From Candidatus Eiseniibacteriota bacterium (GTDB taxonomy: Bacteria > Eisenbacteria > RBG-16-71-46), in assembly GCA_963717505.1 (NCBI GenBank), contig OY970342.1:128001-192000 (forward strand): a DNA stretch of 64,000 nucleotides, in the 5' to 3' direction. Both the position numbers and the translations under genes were made by a program. Shown here piece by piece: positions 16,357-58,701 of this stretch. The notes beneath the pieces were generated by a model that ran no database searches, was not told the DNA's origin, and worked only from the letters and a program-made list of their open reading frames with translations. How positions within the stretch are numbered: position 1 is the first letter of the stretch; each line of letters opens with the position of its first letter.

Positions 16357-17121
16357 CTACCGGATTCGTACGATGCTCGTCGTGCGAGAGCCATCCTCCG
16401 CATCCAGGCGGGCAAAGTACATCCCATCTGCCACTTTCCTGCCACGATCATCCCGCCCGTCCCACGAGAGCCGGTGCCGACCCGCCTCGACGGTCCCGTG
16501 CTGCAGGGTGCGAATGCGTCGCCCCTCGACGCTGAACACGCCGAGGACCACCGCCTGAGGTCTCGCGAGATCGAAGCTCAACTCGACCTCTCTCGTCGAG
16601 GGATTCGGGGCGGCGTTCATTGCCAGTTGCGACGATTCCGCCGATGGAATGACCGAACTGGTCGCGTTCGTGACGAGGTAGCCGGACCAGCACACCGTCG
16701 AGGCCGGATAGGTTAGTCCCGAGATACCGAATCGCAATGCCTCGCTTTCCGGGAAGACGATCCCGGTCGACCAGTTCATCCGCACCGGCCAATTGTGATT
16801 GCCGTTGGCGTCCCAGAGCCCTCCGGAGACCCAGCGAACGTCGGAGTTGAAGTTGAAATTGCGGACCCAGAACGAAACGGACCACGGCCCGGCCGCGGGC
16901 GGAGCCGGATAGCCCGTAGGTGAAAAGCTCAGGTCCGTGAGCACAAAGTTGTATCCCGTTGGAACCAGGTACAGCGACGTTTCCAAGAGCCCGATCCCAG
17001 CAACAATGCTGGTGCATCCGCTCTTCATGTCCGCGGGGTTGACCTGGGCTTTGGCATTCGCCGCGAAGCTGACGGCAATCAGAATTGCGACCACAAACCA
17101 ACTTCTCGGGCTGCGACTCAT
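16357..17121 (-). CDS. Secreted protein with C-terminal FlgD-Ig/T9SS-like domain
   Basis: Signal peptide; C-terminal PNP...VFSVEGRRIRTL...WDGRDDRG...GMYFARL. Confidence 0.8.
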   Translation of the reverse strand: MSRSPRSWFVVAILIAVSFAANAKAQVNPADMKSGCTSIVAGIGLLETSLYLVPTGYNFVLTDLSFSPTGYPAPPAAGPWSVSFWVRNFNFNSDVRWVSGGLWDANGNHNWPVRMNWSTGIVFPESEALRFGISGLTYPASTVCWSGYLVTNATSSVIPSAESSQLAMNAAPNPSTREVELSFDLARPQAVVLGVFSVEGRRIRTLQHGTVEAGRHRLSWDGRDDRGRKVADGMYFARLDAEDGSRTTSIVRIR

Positions 17122-29242: not shown

Positions 29243-31219
29243 TCAGCGAACGCGAACGCCGGATTGTTTGAGGACGCGATCCCCGACGCGGAGCTGGACG
29301 ACGTAGAAGCCGGCTCCGAATTCGCGGCCGTTCGCGTCGCGGAAGTTCCAGGTCGCGTGGTGTTCGCCCGCCGGACGTCGCCCCTGGGCGAGCTGCGCCA
29401 GCTTCCGGCCGGCGAGATCGAAGACCGCGAGCGAAACGTCCTCGTCCTTGGCGAGCGTGAAGCGCAGGAGCACCTCGTCGCGCGCGGGGTTGGGAGCGGG
29501 AGCCGCCAGGAAGAATCGTTCGGTGCGTGCCGGGTCTTCGGCGCCGACGTTCTGCGGACGAATCACCGCCAGGTAGTCCTCGGTTTCTCCGCCGCGGAAG
29601 AACAGGTCCCCAGTCGGCCCGGCCGAGCCGTCCCACGGGAAGTCGTCTGACACCGGGGTCGCGGTCAGCGTGATCCGCACCCAGCCCTGGCCCACGTGCG
29701 GGCCCACGAGGAACGCGGGTGACGTGTGTTTCTCGCATCCGGGCGCCAGCGGGATGAGTCGGTTCTTGACCGCCCATTCGTAGGCGCATCCGGCCCCGGC
29801 GCAGGCGAAGTTGTCGTTCCAATCGCCGTCCGCGTTCATGTCGACCAGCACGTTGAGGAAGACTTCGCGGGGCAGGGTTTTGCAGTTGAAGGTCGAGAAG
29901 TCGACGGTGCCCGGGCGACAGGCGTTGAACGAGATCCAGGGCAGATCGACTCCGGCGTCGACGCCGTCGCCATAGCACTCGTCCTGCCCCCAGACCAGGC
30001 CCGAAAGCTCGGTGCAGTCGACCAGCAGGTTCGTGCTGCACATGCTGGCGAGCGCTCCCGTGTCGTTGGTCTTGCCGTCGGTCTCGCTGTCTACGGCAAG
30101 CGTCCCGGCGGTCGAGCAGCCGAGCCAGAATCCGAACTCGTCGTTCGCGGAGGCCAGGTGCTTCACGAATCCGGTCGGCCCCGGCGGCGTGCTGAGCGCC
30201 GGTACGCACGCCAACTCCTGCGTTCCGGGAATACCCGGGCCACTGCACGTCGGAAAACGTCCGGGCACGCCGGGATACGCGCGCGCTTCCTCGGGGGCAT
30301 CGCCCCAATCTTCATAGTCCAGGCACTCGCCGATCATCGACGGCAGGATGACCACCGGATAGTCCTCGGTCTCGCCATTGTGGAGGCTTTGGGTCGGCGT
30401 CCCGACCGAACCGTTCCACGGGAAGTCGTCCGGTGCCTGTTCGTCGCTGAGCGTAATGCGCATCCAGCCGTCGCCGGGGTTCGGTCCGACGCGGAAGGTC
30501 GGAACGAAGATCGTGTTGCACCCGGGCGCGAGCGTGACCAGGAAGTTCTTGACCGGCCACTCGAATGCACATCCGCTGGCGCAGTTGAAGTTGTCGTTCC
30601 AGTCGCCGTCCCGGTTCCAGTCCGCCAGGATGTTCAAGTACGCCGTGCGACTGACCGCGGCACAACTGAAGGCAGCGATCGTCCAGCCCACGTTGCCGGG
30701 GCCGCAGGCGGTGAGCGTGATCGGGGCCGCGAGCGCGGCGTCGCTGCTGCCATAGCCTTCGTCCTGGCCGAAGTTGAGGATCCCCGCGGTCTCGATGCAG
30801 TCGACGCCGACCGCGCCATTGCACGCGCTGATCGCTGAGCCGTTGTCGTTGACCTTGGCGTCGCTCTCGCCGTCGATCCCCATCGGGGGATTGCCCACCG
30901 GCGGACAACCGAGCCAGTAGCGGTCCGTGCCCGGATGCACGTGGCGAACGTAGCCAGTCGGCCCGGGGGCGGTACTGATCGGCGGACAAACGAACGTCCG
31001 CGTGCCGAGCAGCGCGCTGGTCGCGATGCAGCTCGGGAACTGTCCGGTCACGCCGGGATAGGCAAGCACCCCTTCGGGAGCGTCGCCGAAATCCACCGGC
31101 GCGGCGGGTCGCGTGCAATCGTCAGGACCATCCACGTCGGTGGCACGCGCGGGGTGGGGCGAATACCCGGCGCAGACCAGGCACAAAGTCACCAGGAATC
31201 GAACAATCGTTGGCCTCAT
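29243..31219 (-). CDS. Secreted Cys-rich protein with two GEVED-like modules and FlgD-Ig/T9SS-like CTD
   Basis: Two repeats D(F/W)GDAPE...D(W/M)NxDGDWND...RITL...GETEDY; C-terminal PNP...VFDLAGR...GFYVVQL; GGAGG RBS. Confidence 0.85.
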   Translation of the reverse strand: MRPTIVRFLVTLCLVCAGYSPHPARATDVDGPDDCTRPAAPVDFGDAPEGVLAYPGVTGQFPSCIATSALLGTRTFVCPPISTAPGPTGYVRHVHPGTDRYWLGCPPVGNPPMGIDGESDAKVNDNGSAISACNGAVGVDCIETAGILNFGQDEGYGSSDAALAAPITLTACGPGNVGWTIAAFSCAAVSRTAYLNILADWNRDGDWNDNFNCASGCAFEWPVKNFLVTLAPGCNTIFVPTFRVGPNPGDGWMRITLSDEQAPDDFPWNGSVGTPTQSLHNGETEDYPVVILPSMIGECLDYEDWGDAPEEARAYPGVPGRFPTCSGPGIPGTQELACVPALSTPPGPTGFVKHLASANDEFGFWLGCSTAGTLAVDSETDGKTNDTGALASMCSTNLLVDCTELSGLVWGQDECYGDGVDAGVDLPWISFNACRPGTVDFSTFNCKTLPREVFLNVLVDMNADGDWNDNFACAGAGCAYEWAVKNRLIPLAPGCEKHTSPAFLVGPHVGQGWVRITLTATPVSDDFPWDGSAGPTGDLFFRGGETEDYLAVIRPQNVGAEDPARTERFFLAAPAPNPARDEVLLRFTLAKDEDVSLAVFDLAGRKLAQLAQGRRPAGEHHATWNFRDANGREFGAGFYVVQLRVGDRVLKQSGVRVR

Positions 31220-51310: not shown

Positions 51311-51402
51311 TTAGTGACAACGGGTTGTCTCCGCCGGTCGCCGGGGTCCCGAGTCTTCGCCACCCGCCCGTGACGGGGCCACCCCTCATCCAAGGGGGAG
51401 CC

Positions 51403-52725
51403 ATGTCCACTTCGAAGATGGAATCTGTTCGCAGTCGTACCTCGATCCGAGCCGAACGCCCAATGATTGCTCTTCTACGATCTGGCCTGCTCGCCCTCGG
51501 ACTCTGCGCTGCCACCTCGCCGGCGGCGGCCCAGTGGTCGCGTGTCGACGCCGTTCCCGCGACCAATGTGCTCACGGTGCGGACCCTCGGCGACACCATC
51601 GTCGCGGGCACGTTCACCCGCGCCTACCTCAGCACCAATGCCGGTGCGAACTGGCAGCCCACCTCGCAGATCGGTGGCGGCGTGCCGATCCAGGCCGTGC
51701 TCGTGCGAAACGGCACGCTCTACGCCGGCACGAATCGGTCGGGCGTATTCACCAGCGGCGACTTGGGTCAGACGTGGCATGCGTTCAACGAGGGGTTGGT
51801 GGGCGGGATCGTGAACTCCCAGCTCGACGTCTCGGACCTCGAAGTGCTGGGGGACAGCCTGTATGCCGGGACATTCGGCGCCGGTGTCTATGTTCGTACC
51901 CTCGCCGGCGCGGGGACGTGGCACCATTTCGGCGAGGAGTTCGAGCCGAACCAGGCGTCCAACATCCGCGACCTCGCCGTGGGCGGGACGCGGCTGCTCA
52001 CCGACGCGGGCGCCAACGGCAGCGTGTTCTTCCGCGATCCCGGCGATGGCGATTGGACGATTTCCTGGCTCAACAACGTCGGTCTGCGTCCCAGCCTGGA
52101 GGCGTTCTCGACGGTGTGGACCGGAACGGGGTGGGTCGTGGCCACGGGTGTCGGGCGCGGCGTGTTCACGAGCACGCAGGGCCATGAACCGTGGACGTTC
52201 GTGGACCTCGGCCTCGGCTTGGTGAACTCGGGCACGGTGGCCACGCGCGGCCATCAGGTGTTCGGAGCGTTCAACCGCAACAACGACGTGGTGGTCGAAC
52301 ACAGTGGCGACGACGGCCTGACGTGGGATGTGCTGGACGTGCTGCCCAATGCGTTCGTCTTCCGGATGGCGACACACGGCACCGATCTCTATGCCGCTCG
52401 CGGCGATGGACTGTGGATCCGCTCGACCGCGACGGTGTCGGTGCCGGAACGTGGCCCGCACGCCACTCTGCGATTCGCGATCACAGGGCCGCAGCCGATC
52501 GGTGGCGTCGCACGCGTGCGCTTCGAGCTACCCGAAGCCGCTGCGGCAAAGATCGAAGTGTTCGACGTCACGGGGCGTCGCGTGGCTGAGCCCGTGCAGC
52601 AGCAGCTGGCGGCCGGTGCCCACGAGATCTCGTGGAACACACGCGACCTCGCTCCGGGCATCTACCAGGCGCGGCTGACGGCAGGGGGGCGGCAGGAGGC
52701 GGTGCGGCTGGTGCACGTGCAGTGA
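51403..52725 (+). CDS. Secreted beta-propeller (BNR/Asp-box) protein with T9SS-like CTD
   Basis: SxDxGxTW Asp-boxes (STNAGANW, SGDLGQTW, SGDDGLTW); C-terminal VFDVTGRRV...PGIYQARL. Confidence 0.82.
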   Translation: MSTSKMESVRSRTSIRAERPMIALLRSGLLALGLCAATSPAAAQWSRVDAVPATNVLTVRTLGDTIVAGTFTRAYLSTNAGANWQPTSQIGGGVPIQAVLVRNGTLYAGTNRSGVFTSGDLGQTWHAFNEGLVGGIVNSQLDVSDLEVLGDSLYAGTFGAGVYVRTLAGAGTWHHFGEEFEPNQASNIRDLAVGGTRLLTDAGANGSVFFRDPGDGDWTISWLNNVGLRPSLEAFSTVWTGTGWVVATGVGRGVFTSTQGHEPWTFVDLGLGLVNSGTVATRGHQVFGAFNRNNDVVVEHSGDDGLTWDVLDVLPNAFVFRMATHGTDLYAARGDGLWIRSTATVSVPERGPHATLRFAITGPQPIGGVARVRFELPEAAAAKIEVFDVTGRRVAEPVQQQLAAGAHEISWNTRDLAPGIYQARLTAGGRQEAVRLVHVQ

Positions 52726-53355: not shown

Positions 53356-53797
53356 GGCGCTCCTTTCGACAAGTGGGGAACCAATGGGTCGTGGTCGGGG
53401 AGTGGTAGCGCTTGCCGCCCGTGGAGTCAAACATCCTTTCGGCTGGCTCACCCCCCGGCCCCCCACGGGCCCGCCCGAGCGGCCCCTCCGCACCCCTCCA
53501 CCTGCGGGATGCGCCGGATTCGCCAAACTCGACGTCACCTCCCGCACCGCCGCACGGCCCTCGCTTTCCTTCACTGCCCCTCTGGCGGGAGCCGACAGCC
53601 CGAACTTTGGTCGACATGCCAGGAACGCCCGCTCCCGCCGCGGGCGGCAGGCAACGGGTCAGACCATATGGAACGACCGGCTCGCGATCGTAAGGTCGTG
53701 CTTCTCGCGAGAGAAGACGACGGTGGCGGGGATGCCGCCACGCTCGATCGCGGGTTAGCGCTTGCGGCGCCAGAGCCGCATACGAAAGGAGCCGGTC

Positions 53798-54923
53798 GTG
53801 AGCTCGAACGCTATCACCTGGGTGGGGCTGGACGCACACAAGAACTCGATCCACGTCGCGATGCTGGTCCCGGGGCGGGAGGAGCCCCTGTGCTGGCAGG
53901 AAGCCAATGAGGAGACGGCGGTTCGGCGTCTGGCGCGACGGCTGACCCGCGAGGCGCCCGGTGAGGTGCGTGCCTGCTACGAGGCGGGCCCCCTGGGCTA
54001 TGCCCTCCAGCGGGCGCTCGAGGCCCAGCAGGTGATCTGCGAGGTGGTGGCGCCCTCGCTGATCCCGATCAAGCCCGGGGAACGGATCAAGACCGACTGG
54101 CGGGATGCGACGCAAGCTGGCCGAGCTGCTGCGCTCGGGGATGCTGACCGCTGTGCAACCTCCCAATGAGGCCGATGAGGCGTTGCGCGACTTGTGCCGC
54201 GGGCGCGACAGCGTGCGGCAGGACCTGATGCGGGCACGGCACCGCATGAGCAAGTTCCTGTTGCGCCGTGGCTATCGCTATCGCGACACCCAGCGTCACT
54301 GGGGTGTGCGACACATGAAGTGGCTACGGCCGCTCGGGTTCGAGCATGCCTCCGCCCAGGCGATCTTCGATCACTACCTGCTGACGATCGATCACCTCGA
54401 TGAGCGGTTGCGGCAGGTCGACGCCCACCTCGAGGCGTTCGGAGGACAGGAGCCCTATCGCCAGCCGGTGGCTTGGCTGCGCTGCTTCCGCGGCATTGAC
54501 ACGGTGACGGCGGTGAGTCTCGTCGCTGAGCTTCATGACTTCCGTCGCTTCCGATCGGCGCGTGCGTTGATGGCCTATCTGGGGTTGGTGCCCAGTGAAC
54601 ACTCCAGCGGTGAGCAACGCCGTCAGGGCAGCATCACGCGTGCGGGCAACCGCCACGTACGACGACTGCTGGTCGAGGCTGCGTGGCATCACCGCCATCG
54701 GCCCGTGCTCAGCCAGCCGCTACGCAAGCGTCGCGAGGGGCAACCCGCGCAGATCATCGCCATTGCGGATCGCGCGCAGGAGCGACTCCACGGGCGCTTC
54801 GTGCGCATGACCCGGCGTGGCATCCACTACAACAAGGTCGTCGTCGCCATGGCTCGCGAGCTCGTGGGCTACCTGTGGGCGACGCTTTATCCGCATGAGG
54901 TCGAGGCCCCACCCTCGACCTGA
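53798..54923 (+). pseudogene. IS110 transposase/recombinase with +1 frameshift at about 54110
   Basis: AAGGAG RBS plus GTG; GLDAHK, CYEAGP, KTDWRDA (DEDD); after removing A54110 continues RKLAELL...GID..TA..LVAE...F.SA..LMAYLGLVP.EHSSGE...GN..VRRLLVEAA...VVAMAREL. Confidence 0.9.
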
Positions 54924-54974
54924 ACGCTTGCGCAGCACGGAGAGAATCAGGAAGAAGGTCGGCACGATCCGAGG

Positions 54975-55190
54975 GCCGCGCGACTGCACTATGCGGTGAG
55001 CTAGCAGCATCGCCTGAATCCGCGATCTCAGACAGCGTGCCCTCTCGACGGAACACGGTCATGCGGCTCGGCCCGGGACGCCGGCGCAACCCGCGGATAC
55101 TAGAGTGACTCGTCGTCGAAGCGACCGGCCTTCTTCTTGATCCACTCCGAAGCGGGAACAAACCAAACGGGCCACCCGCTGGGGTGGCCG
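54975..55190 (+). ncRNA. Predicted bridge/seek RNA in IS right end (boundaries approximate)
   Basis: Two parallel hairpins with internal loops (guide-ATGCGG...CCGC-guide) matching the reconstructed target and donor; ends in hairpin GGCCACCC-N4-GGGTGGCC (55170-55189). Confidence 0.7.
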
Positions 55191-55230
55191 TAAGGGACGA
55201 AACTGTGCCTTGACCTAGGGTCGTTCCATA

Positions 55231-57201
55231 CTAGTGAAGCAGCGTCACACGCTGCGTCGCCGACCCGGATTCGGCACGTGCATGGATGAAGTACAGCCCA
55301 CTCGGCAAGCGGTGGCTGTCAAACGTGACCTCATGGGAGCCCGAACCGAGCGGATCGTCCAGGAGCAGCGCCACGCGGTGCCCCGAGACGTCGTACACGC
55401 CAATCGAGACGTGTTGTGGGCGGTCCAGCGACACGATGACTCGCCATGCCCCCACGCCGGGGTTCGCGGTCGCCAGCGCGAGAGAGAGCCGCGGCAGCGA
55501 CGGCGGCAGGACCGACGTCACCCCGACCACAAACGAACCCTGACTCGGCGGGCTTCCGCTGAAGGCGTTGTCCACGGCCCTTACGGTCCAGCCATAGTGG
55601 CCCGTCGGTAATCCGTGAATCGTCCACAGCGTGTTGCGGCTCACGTTGCCGGGCTGCGGGATGAGTCCCGCGACCGCCTCCGCAGACCCGCTCAATCCGG
55701 GCCGCGGCGCCCCCCCGCCGGTGAGTTGCAGCTCGTAGCTGAGCGACGCGGCAGGAGTGCCATCGTCGTTCGACGCGTTCCACGAGAGCATCACCGCGTC
55801 CGCTCCAACGCTTGCCTGGAGGTTGGTCGGGGCGCTGGGCGCCGCATTGTGGCCAGGAGCGTCATTGCGAAACAGTTGCGCGCGAGACTCGATCAGGCCG
55901 TTCCCGCCGGGTACGTAGTATCCGCCGGCCACGAAGTAGTCGAGATCGCCGTCGCCGTCGATGTCGAACCAGGTGAAGGCGCCGCCCGTGTTGCCGAAGT
56001 TGGGCGCTGGAAGGGACTCGCCGGCCAGCGTGAAGACGCCGCCCTCATTCGCATAGACTTCCGAACGGCCGACGATCTCACCATCCCCGAGTTGCTGGCC
56101 GGTGATGAGAAGATCGATGTCGCCATCCGAGTCGTAGTCCGCCCATGTCACGCCCTCGAAATCGAGCCACGGCTCCGTGGGGCTCTGGAACTCGTGGACG
56201 ACATCCACCGGCGTCCACCCGCCCGGGTTCCTGAAAAGAATACGCACTACCGTCTCGCCCGTCTCGTCGGGGCGCACGAGATTGCCGCCCACGACGATGT
56301 CGAAGTCTCCGTCACCGTCGGCATCGCCCAGGTCGGCGGTACCGTATGAGATCACCGCCAGCGCGGAATCCACACGCGCCAGTGTCCCGGAGTCGTTCCG
56401 GTACAGGTCGACCGTGGGAGGCTCGAACTGGCCCATGGTGGCCAACATCAGGTCGAGGTCGCCGTCCCCGTCCATATCGGCCCAGGCGGTGGCTGCGGTA
56501 GTGGCCACCGGCAGCGGCTGTCCCGTGTCCGTGAACGTCCACGCATCGCCGGTCGCCGGACCGTCGTTGCGCAACACCATGGCCGGCAGTCCCTCGAATT
56601 CGCCCGACACGCATGGCAACATCAGGTCGAGATCGCCGTCGTTGTCCACGTCCGCCCAGGTCATGCTGCGCTGATCCATGGTGAGGAAATCGGACTCCTC
56701 CTGGTACGCCGGGAGCACCGTGGACGTGCGCAAAAGCGTACCCGCGTCATTCCGATAGAGGGTCGTCGACCCCTCCCCGCCCACGACGGCGTCCGGATCG
56801 CCGTCGCCGTCATAGTCGCCCCACGCCAGGTCACCAGCGCCAAAGAACAGATCGGTGGCATCCACAGACACGGGTGTGAACGCCCACGAGCCCCCAGGCA
56901 CCGGGCCGTCGTTGCGGTAGAGCGTCAGAAGGTGTTCCACGGACCCGAAGTAGACGACGTAGTACCCGGCGACCAGGAGATCCAGATCGCCGTCCGCGTC
57001 CACATCCGCGGGTGCAACGCTGGCGATCCAGAAGTCGGTGTTCGGGCCGGTGTTGAACAGCGTGTCAGTGAGTGAGAGTTCGGTGAATTCGCCCTGGGCG
57101 CGCACGGGTCCCGGAGCGATGGCACTCGCGAGGAGCGCGAGCGCCGCGCAGACGGTGAGCCTGGCTGCGCGAGTGCGTGGTGGCGTAAATGTGGGGGCCA
57201 T
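55231..57201 (-). CDS. Secreted FG-GAP/VCBS repeat protein with FN3-like and T9SS-like CTD
   Basis: Repeated W(A/G)DxDxDGDxD and YRND motifs; APSAPTNL..WNAS FN3 segment; VYDVSGHRV...SGLYFI. Confidence 0.88.
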   Translation of the reverse strand: MAPTFTPPRTRAARLTVCAALALLASAIAPGPVRAQGEFTELSLTDTLFNTGPNTDFWIASVAPADVDADGDLDLLVAGYYVVYFGSVEHLLTLYRNDGPVPGGSWAFTPVSVDATDLFFGAGDLAWGDYDGDGDPDAVVGGEGSTTLYRNDAGTLLRTSTVLPAYQEESDFLTMDQRSMTWADVDNDGDLDLMLPCVSGEFEGLPAMVLRNDGPATGDAWTFTDTGQPLPVATTAATAWADMDGDGDLDLMLATMGQFEPPTVDLYRNDSGTLARVDSALAVISYGTADLGDADGDGDFDIVVGGNLVRPDETGETVVRILFRNPGGWTPVDVVHEFQSPTEPWLDFEGVTWADYDSDGDIDLLITGQQLGDGEIVGRSEVYANEGGVFTLAGESLPAPNFGNTGGAFTWFDIDGDGDLDYFVAGGYYVPGGNGLIESRAQLFRNDAPGHNAAPSAPTNLQASVGADAVMLSWNASNDDGTPAASLSYELQLTGGGAPRPGLSGSAEAVAGLIPQPGNVSRNTLWTIHGLPTGHYGWTVRAVDNAFSGSPPSQGSFVVGVTSVLPPSLPRLSLALATANPGVGAWRVIVSLDRPQHVSIGVYDVSGHRVALLLDDPLGSGSHEVTFDSHRLPSGLYFIHARAESGSATQRVTLLH

Positions 57202-57282: not shown

Positions 57283-58701
57283 CTAGCGAATCAGCGTCAC
57301 TGTCCTCGATCCCACGCGGGATCCGGACTCGAGCCGGACCACGTAGATGCCCGAAGGCATTACTCTGCCCTGGGAGTCTCGGCCGTTCCAGGTGAGAGTG
57401 TGGGGGCCCGCCGCGAACTTCTGGTCGGAAAGGACATTCAAGCGCCGGCCGGTCAGGTCATAGATTCCGATCTTGACCCGTCCCTCGAGCTTGAGCGCAA
57501 ACGAGAGAGTCGTCAGCGAATTCGACGGGTTGGGATGGACACCGGTGAGCATCGTCTGGCCGTCGACGGCACCCGGGTCCACCGACGCCGTTCCGTCGTC
57601 CACCGTCCACATCAATGCATGATCCAGATTGTCCCCGGCGACAGTGCCGGTGCCGATGATCTGACCACGATTGTTGATTCCCTTCGCGACACTGTAGTGG
57701 CCCCCCGGCCAAACGCCGAGGTCGATTGCCTCGCCGTTGCGCCAGAGGATCGCATGCGCGTCGATGTTCGGGGAGCCGGCGTATCCTGCTACGTCGCCGC
57801 GATTATTCACCGCGGTTGGCGTCGCGGAGAAGAATCCGGAAGGCATCGGCAGCTGATTGATCGTCGGCGTGCTGTTGGGGTTTGAAATGTCATATCCCCA
57901 GGTGACCGGATAGATGTTGCTCTTCCCGGCAATCAAACCCGTATTGCTGATCGCGTAGGCTTCGCTTACGACCTGACCGCTCAGCCCACCGAGGCCGATC
58001 ATCTGACCATTGCGCCAGAGGAACCCGCGAATCAGCGAGCCGACCGCGCCGTTGCCGACCACGTGGCTCAAATCGTTGATGCCGTAGGCTTCGCTGTAGT
58101 TCAAAGGAGTGCCTTGACCCAAGAAACCTAGATCAATGGCCTCTGTGTCCTTGTTGGGCCACAGAACGGCGTGCGTGTAGTAGTTCGGTGCGCCCTCCTT
58201 ACCCGTACCCACGAGCTGGCCCAGATTGTTGATGCCGTGAGCCCTGGTGTGAAGGCCTCCGTAGAAGGGGTCAACGCCCGCCATCGCGGGTAGTTCGAAG
58301 GCGTCCCCGGCGGAATTCCAGTAGACGCCTTGGTACACATTGTCACCATAAACCTCGCTGCCAGCCATTTCTCTGCTGTCATTGATGTGCTCCGGGATCG
58401 CAGTGCTGGCGGGACTCATGTTCTCCGCCATACCCACGATGGCTCCGGAGTTTGCGTTCCAAAATGGTCGCAGCAGGGCGAAGGTATTGTCGTTCGCCAA
58501 ACCAACGGCGATCGGCTCGTTGTTGATCGCCAATCCGCTTGACCCGGTCCCTTGGGGAAGCAGTCCGAGGTCGGTAATGATGATCCGTGACCCGCCGGGG
58601 GAATACTGGATCGACTTCTCCGCCTCGGCGCTGGAGATCGACAGGGTGCTTGCGACGGCCGTGACGACGATGACGTTCTTGACCCAGCGCGGGGATGGCA
58701 T
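57283..58701 (-). CDS. Secreted HAF-repeat protein with FlgD-Ig CTD
   Basis: Repeated DLG...SxAxGINxxGxxVG...HAxLW units; PNP...IYDLTGRR...WNGRDSQG...SGIYVVRL; GGAGG RBS. Confidence 0.85.
   Translation of the reverse strand: MPSPRWVKNVIVVTAVASTLSISSAEAEKSIQYSPGGSRIIITDLGLLPQGTGSSGLAINNEPIAVGLANDNTFALLRPFWNANSGAIVGMAENMSPASTAIPEHINDSREMAGSEVYGDNVYQGVYWNSAGDAFELPAMAGVDPFYGGLHTRAHGINNLGQLVGTGKEGAPNYYTHAVLWPNKDTEAIDLGFLGQGTPLNYSEAYGINDLSHVVGNGAVGSLIRGFLWRNGQMIGLGGLSGQVVSEAYAISNTGLIAGKSNIYPVTWGYDISNPNSTPTINQLPMPSGFFSATPTAVNNRGDVAGYAGSPNIDAHAILWRNGEAIDLGVWPGGHYSVAKGINNRGQIIGTGTVAGDNLDHALMWTVDDGTASVDPGAVDGQTMLTGVHPNPSNSLTTLSFALKLEGRVKIGIYDLTGRRLNVLSDQKFAAGPHTLTWNGRDSQGRVMPSGIYVVRLESGSRVGSRTVTLIR

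Follow-up and report, generated by a model that had tools for sequence, protein, structure and literature searches.

We identified an insertion sequence (IS) within the stop codon of a host gene in a 64,000-nucleotide stretch of a Candidatus Eiseniibacteriota contig (OY970342.1, positions 128,001 to 192,000), referred to here as the window. Judged from its sequence, the element would be a bridge-recombinase IS of the IS1111 type, belonging to the IS1533-like group, and it replaces the original TGA of the host gene with a TAG to which it contributes two bases. Its predicted bridge (or seek) RNA contains a target loop that we think is probably programmed for the last two codons of a gene together with its stop, in this copy apparently Leu-His-TGA (CTG CAC TGA). 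The first-pass annotation of the window had suggested that the element targets the 3' ends of genes, and relatives in other genomes proved to be strongly enriched at in-frame gene ends. The coordinates of all features are listed in Table 1.

Removal of the 1572 nt in silico leaves a single core between the flanks (GGGTC-AG-TGAAGC), which on the minus strand ends the host gene as ...RVTLLH-TGA. With the element in place the same strand reads ...RVTLLH-TAG, in which Leu-Leu-His is kept, and the junction described in the first-pass annotation was thereby reproduced. The T of the new stop is core base 55233 and the other two bases are the final two of the element (55231-55232); if this stop were not supplied, the host frame would continue for 158 codons into the element. 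The host protein carries FG-GAP repeats (FG-GAP_3, E 4e-30) and a weak Por_Secre_tail match that lies below the curated cut-off (E 4e-4). It has lost nothing, as had been claimed, because six of six homologues stop at one alignment column, with the endings LFR, LSK, LIR, LLN, LLR and LLH. The earlier boundary call is upheld by an 11/11 subterminal inverted repeat that leaves 7 nt outside it on the left and 3 nt on the right, a feature independent of the stop codon, by a donor guide in the RNA that equals the right end at 7/7 bases, and by an equal end layout in most relatives.

The non-coding stretch 3' of the transposase gene measures about 310 nt, compared with 137 nt 5' of the gene. This right end (54924-55232) folds with a z of -4.2, and an alignment of 14 bridge RNA sequences revealed compensatory changes at 8 of 21 consensus pairs. 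In the same 14 sequences the two target guides lie unpaired, one on each side of an internal loop flanked by stems that carry compensatory changes; taken alone, the single guide loops fold no better than shuffles (z -0.3 to -1.2). A guide for CAC-TGA had been postulated in the first-pass annotation, and one was found, divided between a left guide for CTG CAC T and a right guide that adds the GA. The accompanying idea that such insertions are harmless stands as a tendency only, given that one relative (L081, see below) interrupts a gene. The right donor guide and the element end have changed together, giving TAG here and TGA in the relative L001 from a Candidatus Eisenbacteria genome. L001 lies within the stop codon of an FG-GAP gene that encodes 1879 aa with the tail RVTLLD and is a mirror image of the window element, its site being TAG, its donor TGA and both of its guides swapped. 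In addition, the right end bears a terminator-like hairpin facing the host gene, and similar hairpins occur in relatives on the minus strand in 18/57 cases and on the other strand in 5/57. The notion that the hairpin is specific to gene-end cases was rejected (7/17 vs 11/40).

We then compared the element with the top 80 among 589 confirmed matches from one genome scan, which share 42-67% identity with it. Fourteen Bacillota loci were treated separately as a clade of their own. Among the 66 others, the left end with flank was available for 63, alignable guides for 61, the right end for 57, and both ends plus 450 nt or more of flanking sequence for 40; L070 and L079 had their ends placed manually. 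Guides follow their own sites closely. The left guide matched its site at 193/270 bases (shuffled mean 79, maximum 107; n=54) and the right guide at 139/171 (shuffled mean 85, maximum 105; n=57). For the donor guides the figures were 132/174 against a shuffled 103 (maximum 117), a weaker control as the donor-loop columns are misaligned in some rows.

The triplet specified by the right guide is a stop in 56 of the 61 non-Bacillota relatives (TAG 30, TAA 17, TGA 9) and a non-stop in five, and the occupied targets are stop triplets in 56/63, against a background of 7.7% among all CT-NN sites in the relatives' flanks. TGG was found in one of 61 guides despite making up 11.5% of the background. On a quick tree we counted 20 changes of the triplet encoded by the guide, only five of them between stop and non-stop. 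Throughout the clade the right guides appear to stay within TAA, TAG and TGA while the left guides seem to vary freely. The pooled guides showed no codon-like GC pattern, and relatives whose sites end in Lys use GT/AT cores.

Conversion of TGA to TAG, which the first-pass annotation had put forward as a rule, did not hold up; the rule is stop to stop. Non-Bacillota donors supply TGA in 46/57 cases and their targets are mostly TAG or TAA, which makes the window element the rarer, reversed case. TAG donors were seen only in the window element, L010 and L070, all with TGA targets and on separate branches. A TAG donor may serve to keep donor and target distinct where the target is TGA; nevertheless, five TGA-target elements retain a TGA donor. 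That the donor end evolved to yield a stop is unsupported, given that Bacillota members carry TGA donors and no stop targets, and the donor stop thus predates or outlives the targeting strategy.

Individual relatives provide further evidence. A real empty allele exists for L082, on a Pseudonocardia plasmid: L097, from such a plasmid as well, agrees at 1200/1200 bases with the sequence predicted for L082 without the IS; TAA becomes TGA upon insertion and both records list one protein accession, WP_060722576.1. One element (L072 and L074) occupies two different FlgD_ig gene ends in the same genome. Related elements in different Actinomycetota genomes, L030 (7427-7927) and L079 (7434-7883), lie in the ssb stop codon behind the end DDIPF, with guides that read Leu/Pro-Phe-TAG.

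The enrichment at gene ends was assessed by two criteria. Using a simple open reading frame (ORF) and GC-frame rule at 45 testable sites, we found that at 17 the supplied stop terminates a gene on the minus strand, whereas 4.1-5.3% of stop triplets in the flanks end a gene-like ORF (756/18218; 241/4554 after C). Pfam backs 14 of these 17 ORFs and none of the 15 other ORFs tested. The second criterion was a codon-model gene caller applied to the reconstructed empty alleles of 40 sites, which returned 14 minus-strand gene ends and four plus-strand ends at the left TAG. Matched for four-base context, the expectation over 38 sites was 1.9 minus-strand ends, 1.7 plus-strand ends, 19.9 intergenic sites and 14.5 sites in genes. 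To allow for the purging of in-gene insertions, we also counted non-genic sites only, under four caller settings with 77-83% flank coverage. Here the IS completes the gene end at 15-16 of 35 sites compared with 2.8-4.4 expected, a number reached in 0/50,000 simulations. Stop-bearing donors were found at gene ends in 17/36 cases and donors without a stop in 0/7 (Fisher p 0.031).

The genes hit by the window element and its counterparts in hosts of the same type share a secretion-like C-terminal domain (CTD). All seven testable sites (the window, L001, L036, L049, L068, L072 and L074) lie at CTD-gene ends, compared with 5/84 other gene ends there, by a CTD profile built partly from six of the seven targets. 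An independent CTD match from Pfam, in some cases below the curated cut-off, exists for six of the seven, the exception being L001. Four of the five non-target CTD genes end in Leu/Val/Ile plus Lys/Arg/His, and so does one of 79 non-CTD genes. In the window, 5 of 56 called genes have such a domain; the first-pass annotation had noted similar short basic or His tails among them, which is roughly right, since the four others end in RVR, HVQ, LIR and RIR. A further site, L059, has a flank of only 5 nt and reads LK. In these CTD-rich hosts the left guides appear to spell the common Leu/Val-Lys/Arg/His tail, which would open many low-cost sites to the element. The window element and L001 belong to one supported transposase clade and the Lys-ending group to another, and a one-clade arrangement tested on 32 of 86 rows gave a p-AU of 0.034, the group having been named after the tree was seen. 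Given that order, we regard convergence of two transposase clades on CTD-gene ends as likely.

Table 1. Positions in the window of the insertion sequence, its parts, its host gene and other CTD genes.
Feature	Position	Strand	Basis
IS1111-type insertion sequence (probable class), 1572 bp; 7-bp left extension starting with core AG, 3-bp right extension	53661..55232	+	in-silico excision, repeats, end layout
GA of original host TGA stop, remaining in left flank	53659..53660	-	in-silico empty allele
Left core dinucleotide AG (CT on minus strand)	53661..53662	.	in-silico excision
Left subterminal inverted repeat, 11 bp	53668..53678	+	repeat search
IS110-family DEDD recombinase gene, overlapping frames 53798-54169 and 54105-54923; frameshift (one base) near 54105-54115	53798..54923	+	homology to P0001
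Predicted bridge/seek RNA, 25-bp outer stem, target-binding and donor-binding loops; approximate RNA ends	54938..55149	+	folding, covariation
Left target guide; final seven bases CTG CAC T (Leu-His and stop T)	54982..54990	+	one mismatch to occupied site over those seven
Right target guide; final four bases pair with core and GA, specifying TGA	55025..55031	+	guide alignment
Left donor guide; 6/8 bases match left end	55053..55060	+	guide alignment
Right donor guide, equal to the element's last 5 bases and core	55097..55103	+	guide alignment
Terminator-like hairpin (putative function), T-rich tail facing host gene, ~40 nt past supplied stop	55170..55189	-	3 sites vs 0.8 in shuffles
Outward -35-like hexamer; matching -10 across predicted circle junction weak	55210..55215	+	sequence match
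Right subterminal inverted repeat, 11 bp	55219..55229	+	repeat search
Replacement stop codon TAG	55231..55233	-	T from core, AG from element end
Right core dinucleotide AG	55233..55234	.	in-silico excision
Host gene, 656-aa FG-GAP repeat protein, C-terminal Por_Secre_tail/FlgD_ig-like domain, tail RVTLLH	55231..57201	-	Pfam, homologues
CTD gene, tail RIR	16357-17094
CTD gene, tail RVR	29243-31096
CTD gene, tail HVQ	51325-52725
CTD gene, tail LIR	57283-58701

Based on these findings we propose the following course of events. As known for the family, the element would excise as a circle and make its RNA from the long right end. The target loop would then pair with CTG CAC T and with the core plus GA, as the covariation observed in relatives suggests, and the gene-carrying strand would be cut right after the invariant core T, by analogy with IS621. 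The next two bases of the donor would complete a new stop and leave the protein unchanged, in agreement with the sequence here and with the real empty allele of a relative. Finally, the right-end hairpin probably terminates the host transcript. Because the core T begins every stop codon, aiming at a stop would take only two guide bases, and restoring one only two from the donor. As the element reads DNA only, it also lands on matches that are out of frame or intergenic. We infer that the bias towards gene ends arose as an evolved choice of guides and may have been reinforced by selection.

Several observations weigh against stop-codon programming or narrow its reach. The window guide has one mismatch to its own occupied site, and the window holds eight sites with at most one mismatch to the guide 9-mer, of which the occupied one alone is a gene end. 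L081, an element identical to that of L082, interrupts a gene at an out-of-frame TAG, which argues that recognition is of a DNA word and not of a gene end. By the codon-model caller, 19 of the 40 sites are intergenic and three lie within genes; since no more than 70-83% of the flank sequence is covered by the caller, the expected gene-end counts come out lower. Among 20 annotated plasmid loci, neighbours of the IS that are 41-45% identical where protein identity is given, an annotated gene terminates at the IS stop in just one; stop-triplet targets occur at 9 of the 13 loci with callable ends among the first 16, four of these nine having donors that provide no stop. The proteobacterial elements L085, L086, L090 and L095 target TAG but their donors supply no stop, and Bacillota donors are TGA in 12/12 cases with stop targets in 0/11. 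Furthermore, sites inside one clade share inherited guides, and the relatives examined are of the modest identity given above, the 37 closest proteins (81-94%) being known as proteins without genomic context. Stop targeting is thus not universal: about half of the sites are intergenic, and the Bacillota members aim at no stops.

These observations bear on the best of the other explanations, gene avoidance with survivor bias, which as a full account strikes us as unlikely. According to this explanation guides settle on words of the CTAG/TTAG type as these are rare in the genes of GC-rich hosts, in-gene insertions are purged so that gene-end cases accumulate although no guide is tuned to them, and the donor stop is an old accident. 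CTAG indeed lies inside called genes at only 154/499 occurrences and TTAG at 57/239, compared with about 70% for TCAG, and the intergenic half of the sites, the mid-gene position of L081 and the donor TGA retained in Bacillota all fit, as do the plus-strand gene ends at the left TAG (4/40; Pfam supports 5 of 11 candidates). However, the excess persists when non-genic sites alone are counted, both for CTAG/TTAG (12-14/26 vs 4.1-5.6 expected) and for other words (7/9 vs 0.9-1.6). TGA-type targets are common within genes (gene ends 99/3099), yet of the seven relatives that combine a TGA target with a stop-supplying donor, five occupy a gene end. Avoidance also leaves unexplained the seven CTD genes out of seven and the guides that read Leu-Lys, Leu-Arg, Leu-His and Pro-Phe. 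It probably contributes in the Solirubrobacterales group.

Far less plausible is a biochemical constraint combined with coincidence, in which stops arise as a by-product of an enzymatic preference for purines next to the core and of a donor end dictated by the protein, the window locus being a lucky match. The donor triplet is indeed strongly conserved, with TGA as the prevailing end in both clades (46/57 and 12/12), and a guide U can wobble with G, which makes purine pairs easy to read. A purine rule predicts TGG to be as frequent as the stops, whereas one guide in 61 contains it, and Bacillota and ISSso6-like members use non-purine pairs. In addition, the donor end did change here from TGA to TAG along with its guide, and a by-product would not yield in-frame gene ends. 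A wrong boundary or an assembly artefact is hardly credible: although the frameshift seen in none of the 34 aligned close homologues makes a nearby sequence error possible and the boundary at this locus rests on an in-silico empty allele, the repeats are perfect at the 7/3 positions, the guides match both junctions, the homologues end in register and the same layout recurs in dozens of genomes.

We return to the element itself, whose transposase is encoded in two overlapping pieces separated by this one-base frameshift. The second piece matches PF02371 (Transposase_20) with an E of 2e-23 and part of PF01548, and the first piece by itself has no Pfam match; close homologues carry both the DEDD RuvC-like and the Transposase_20 domain. 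The pieces are 86% (residues 1-106) and 91% (residues 105-374) identical to an intact homologue, P0001. The frameshift would reflect an inactivating mutation or else an error of assembly and, if it is real, this copy could not move by its own enzyme. No second copy of the element was found within the window, where two weak short matches are attributable to chance. An Rfam search gave no matches, no record in a search of plasmid DNA covered the element, and a phage search returned two distant records. A sigma-70 promoter scan of the linear right-end region found nothing.

Among the relatives we also noted some particular arrangements. The target gene of L024 (1668-4145) encodes a cytochrome P450 fused to a C-terminal ferredoxin. 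L090 (1893-3449), a 42% relative, is located between qacEdelta1 and arr-3 of a class 1 integron from Klebsiella, where it seems to occupy an attC core site, and its donor yields TGG, which is no stop. A subclade formed by L025, L035, L042, L053 and L062 has a non-stop donor end, a left guide shifted by one base and a palindrome-like CTAAG/CTTAG target site. From about 7150 in L078, the target loop of the bridge RNA region is broken by other DNA, including the apparent start of another IS110-type gene. The Bacillota elements L018, L075, L076 and L080 have longer right ends (~500-630 nt) and lie inside repeated GC-rich palindromic sites, which presumably correspond to repetitive extragenic palindromic (REP) elements.

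Integrative elements of phages and integrative and conjugative elements (ICEs) rebuild the ends of tRNA or protein genes at their att sites, and the host product stays intact. Miniature inverted-repeat transposable elements (MITEs) that target TA overlap stop codons. The accessible part of PMC2229807 does not state the latter point. Phage and ICE elements carry a copy of one gene end and the MITEs use an unguided dinucleotide, whereas in the window element an RNA guide would specify a short word of codon plus stop present at many genes, for which two donor bases suffice.

The closest known systems are those of the IS1111 family, which the window element resembles in its 7/3-bp extensions, its long non-coding 3' region, its DEDD and Transposase_20 domains and the lack of a target duplication beyond the core. 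The available text of 10.1101/2024.04.26.591405 defines the family by subterminal inverted repeats of 11-13 bp with 7-bp left and 3-bp right extensions, and that of PMC11208160 gives the same layout; a row labelled IS1533 in the accessible supplement of the latter resembles the window element closely by eye. IS1533 is called a member of the IS1111 family in section 13 of PMC11187229. P0001 matches ISSfr2 (43.6%), ISSso6 (41.7%) and Leptospira IS110 elements (43%). The IS1111 family members described in the sources available to us differ from the window element in their targets, which are attC sites, REP sequences and Tn21 inverted repeats. No stop is supplied by ISSfr2-like donors, and the target of ISSso6 is TTA. 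IS621, as far as the accessible part of PMC11208158 describes it, has a CT core with a nearly invariant T, is cut just after this T and tolerates other bases at the first core position. The window element shares this core and the separate target and donor loops, the GT/AT cores of the Lys-ending relatives correspond to the tolerance at the first position, and the cut in the window element is placed by this analogy. IS621 differs in that its RNA lies in the left end and its repeats are short, an IS110-group trait absent from the window element, and in that its donor continues with T-T (dT9, dT10) after the core T and supplies no stop (PMC11208158, same part). In a literature search confined to accessible text, which took in neither target logos shown as figures nor older papers behind subscription, we found no report of IS110 or IS1111 elements targeting host stop codons, and the word "stop" is absent from the accessible part of PMC13604230.

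In conclusion, our analyses point to a mobile element whose guides are aimed at the ends of genes. With less assurance, we lean towards the broader view that in this clade the genetic code has moulded the bridge RNAs. The core T would act as the first base of the stop, the right guides would be held to TAA, TAG or TGA, and the donor ends would return a stop and often a terminator. In two separate transposase lineages the left guides would have converged on the CTD tail (Leu/Val-Lys/Arg/His), and in a further lineage on Pro-Phe at the end of SSB, making a protein motif a multi-copy safe harbour. The supplied stop offers a check on boundaries and annotation in a group whose listed ends are described as unreliable in section 13 of PMC11187229, the portion consulted. 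Natural pairs of recombinase and guide that insert DNA exactly at the last codon of a gene would be of interest for tagging or for the insertion of 3' cargo. The natural targets of bridge-RNA elements described in the sources available to us are recombination sites and repeats outside coding sequence. A stop-directed clade would represent a different logic for choosing targets without harm to the host, one which predicts that guide matches pile up at in-frame gene ends.

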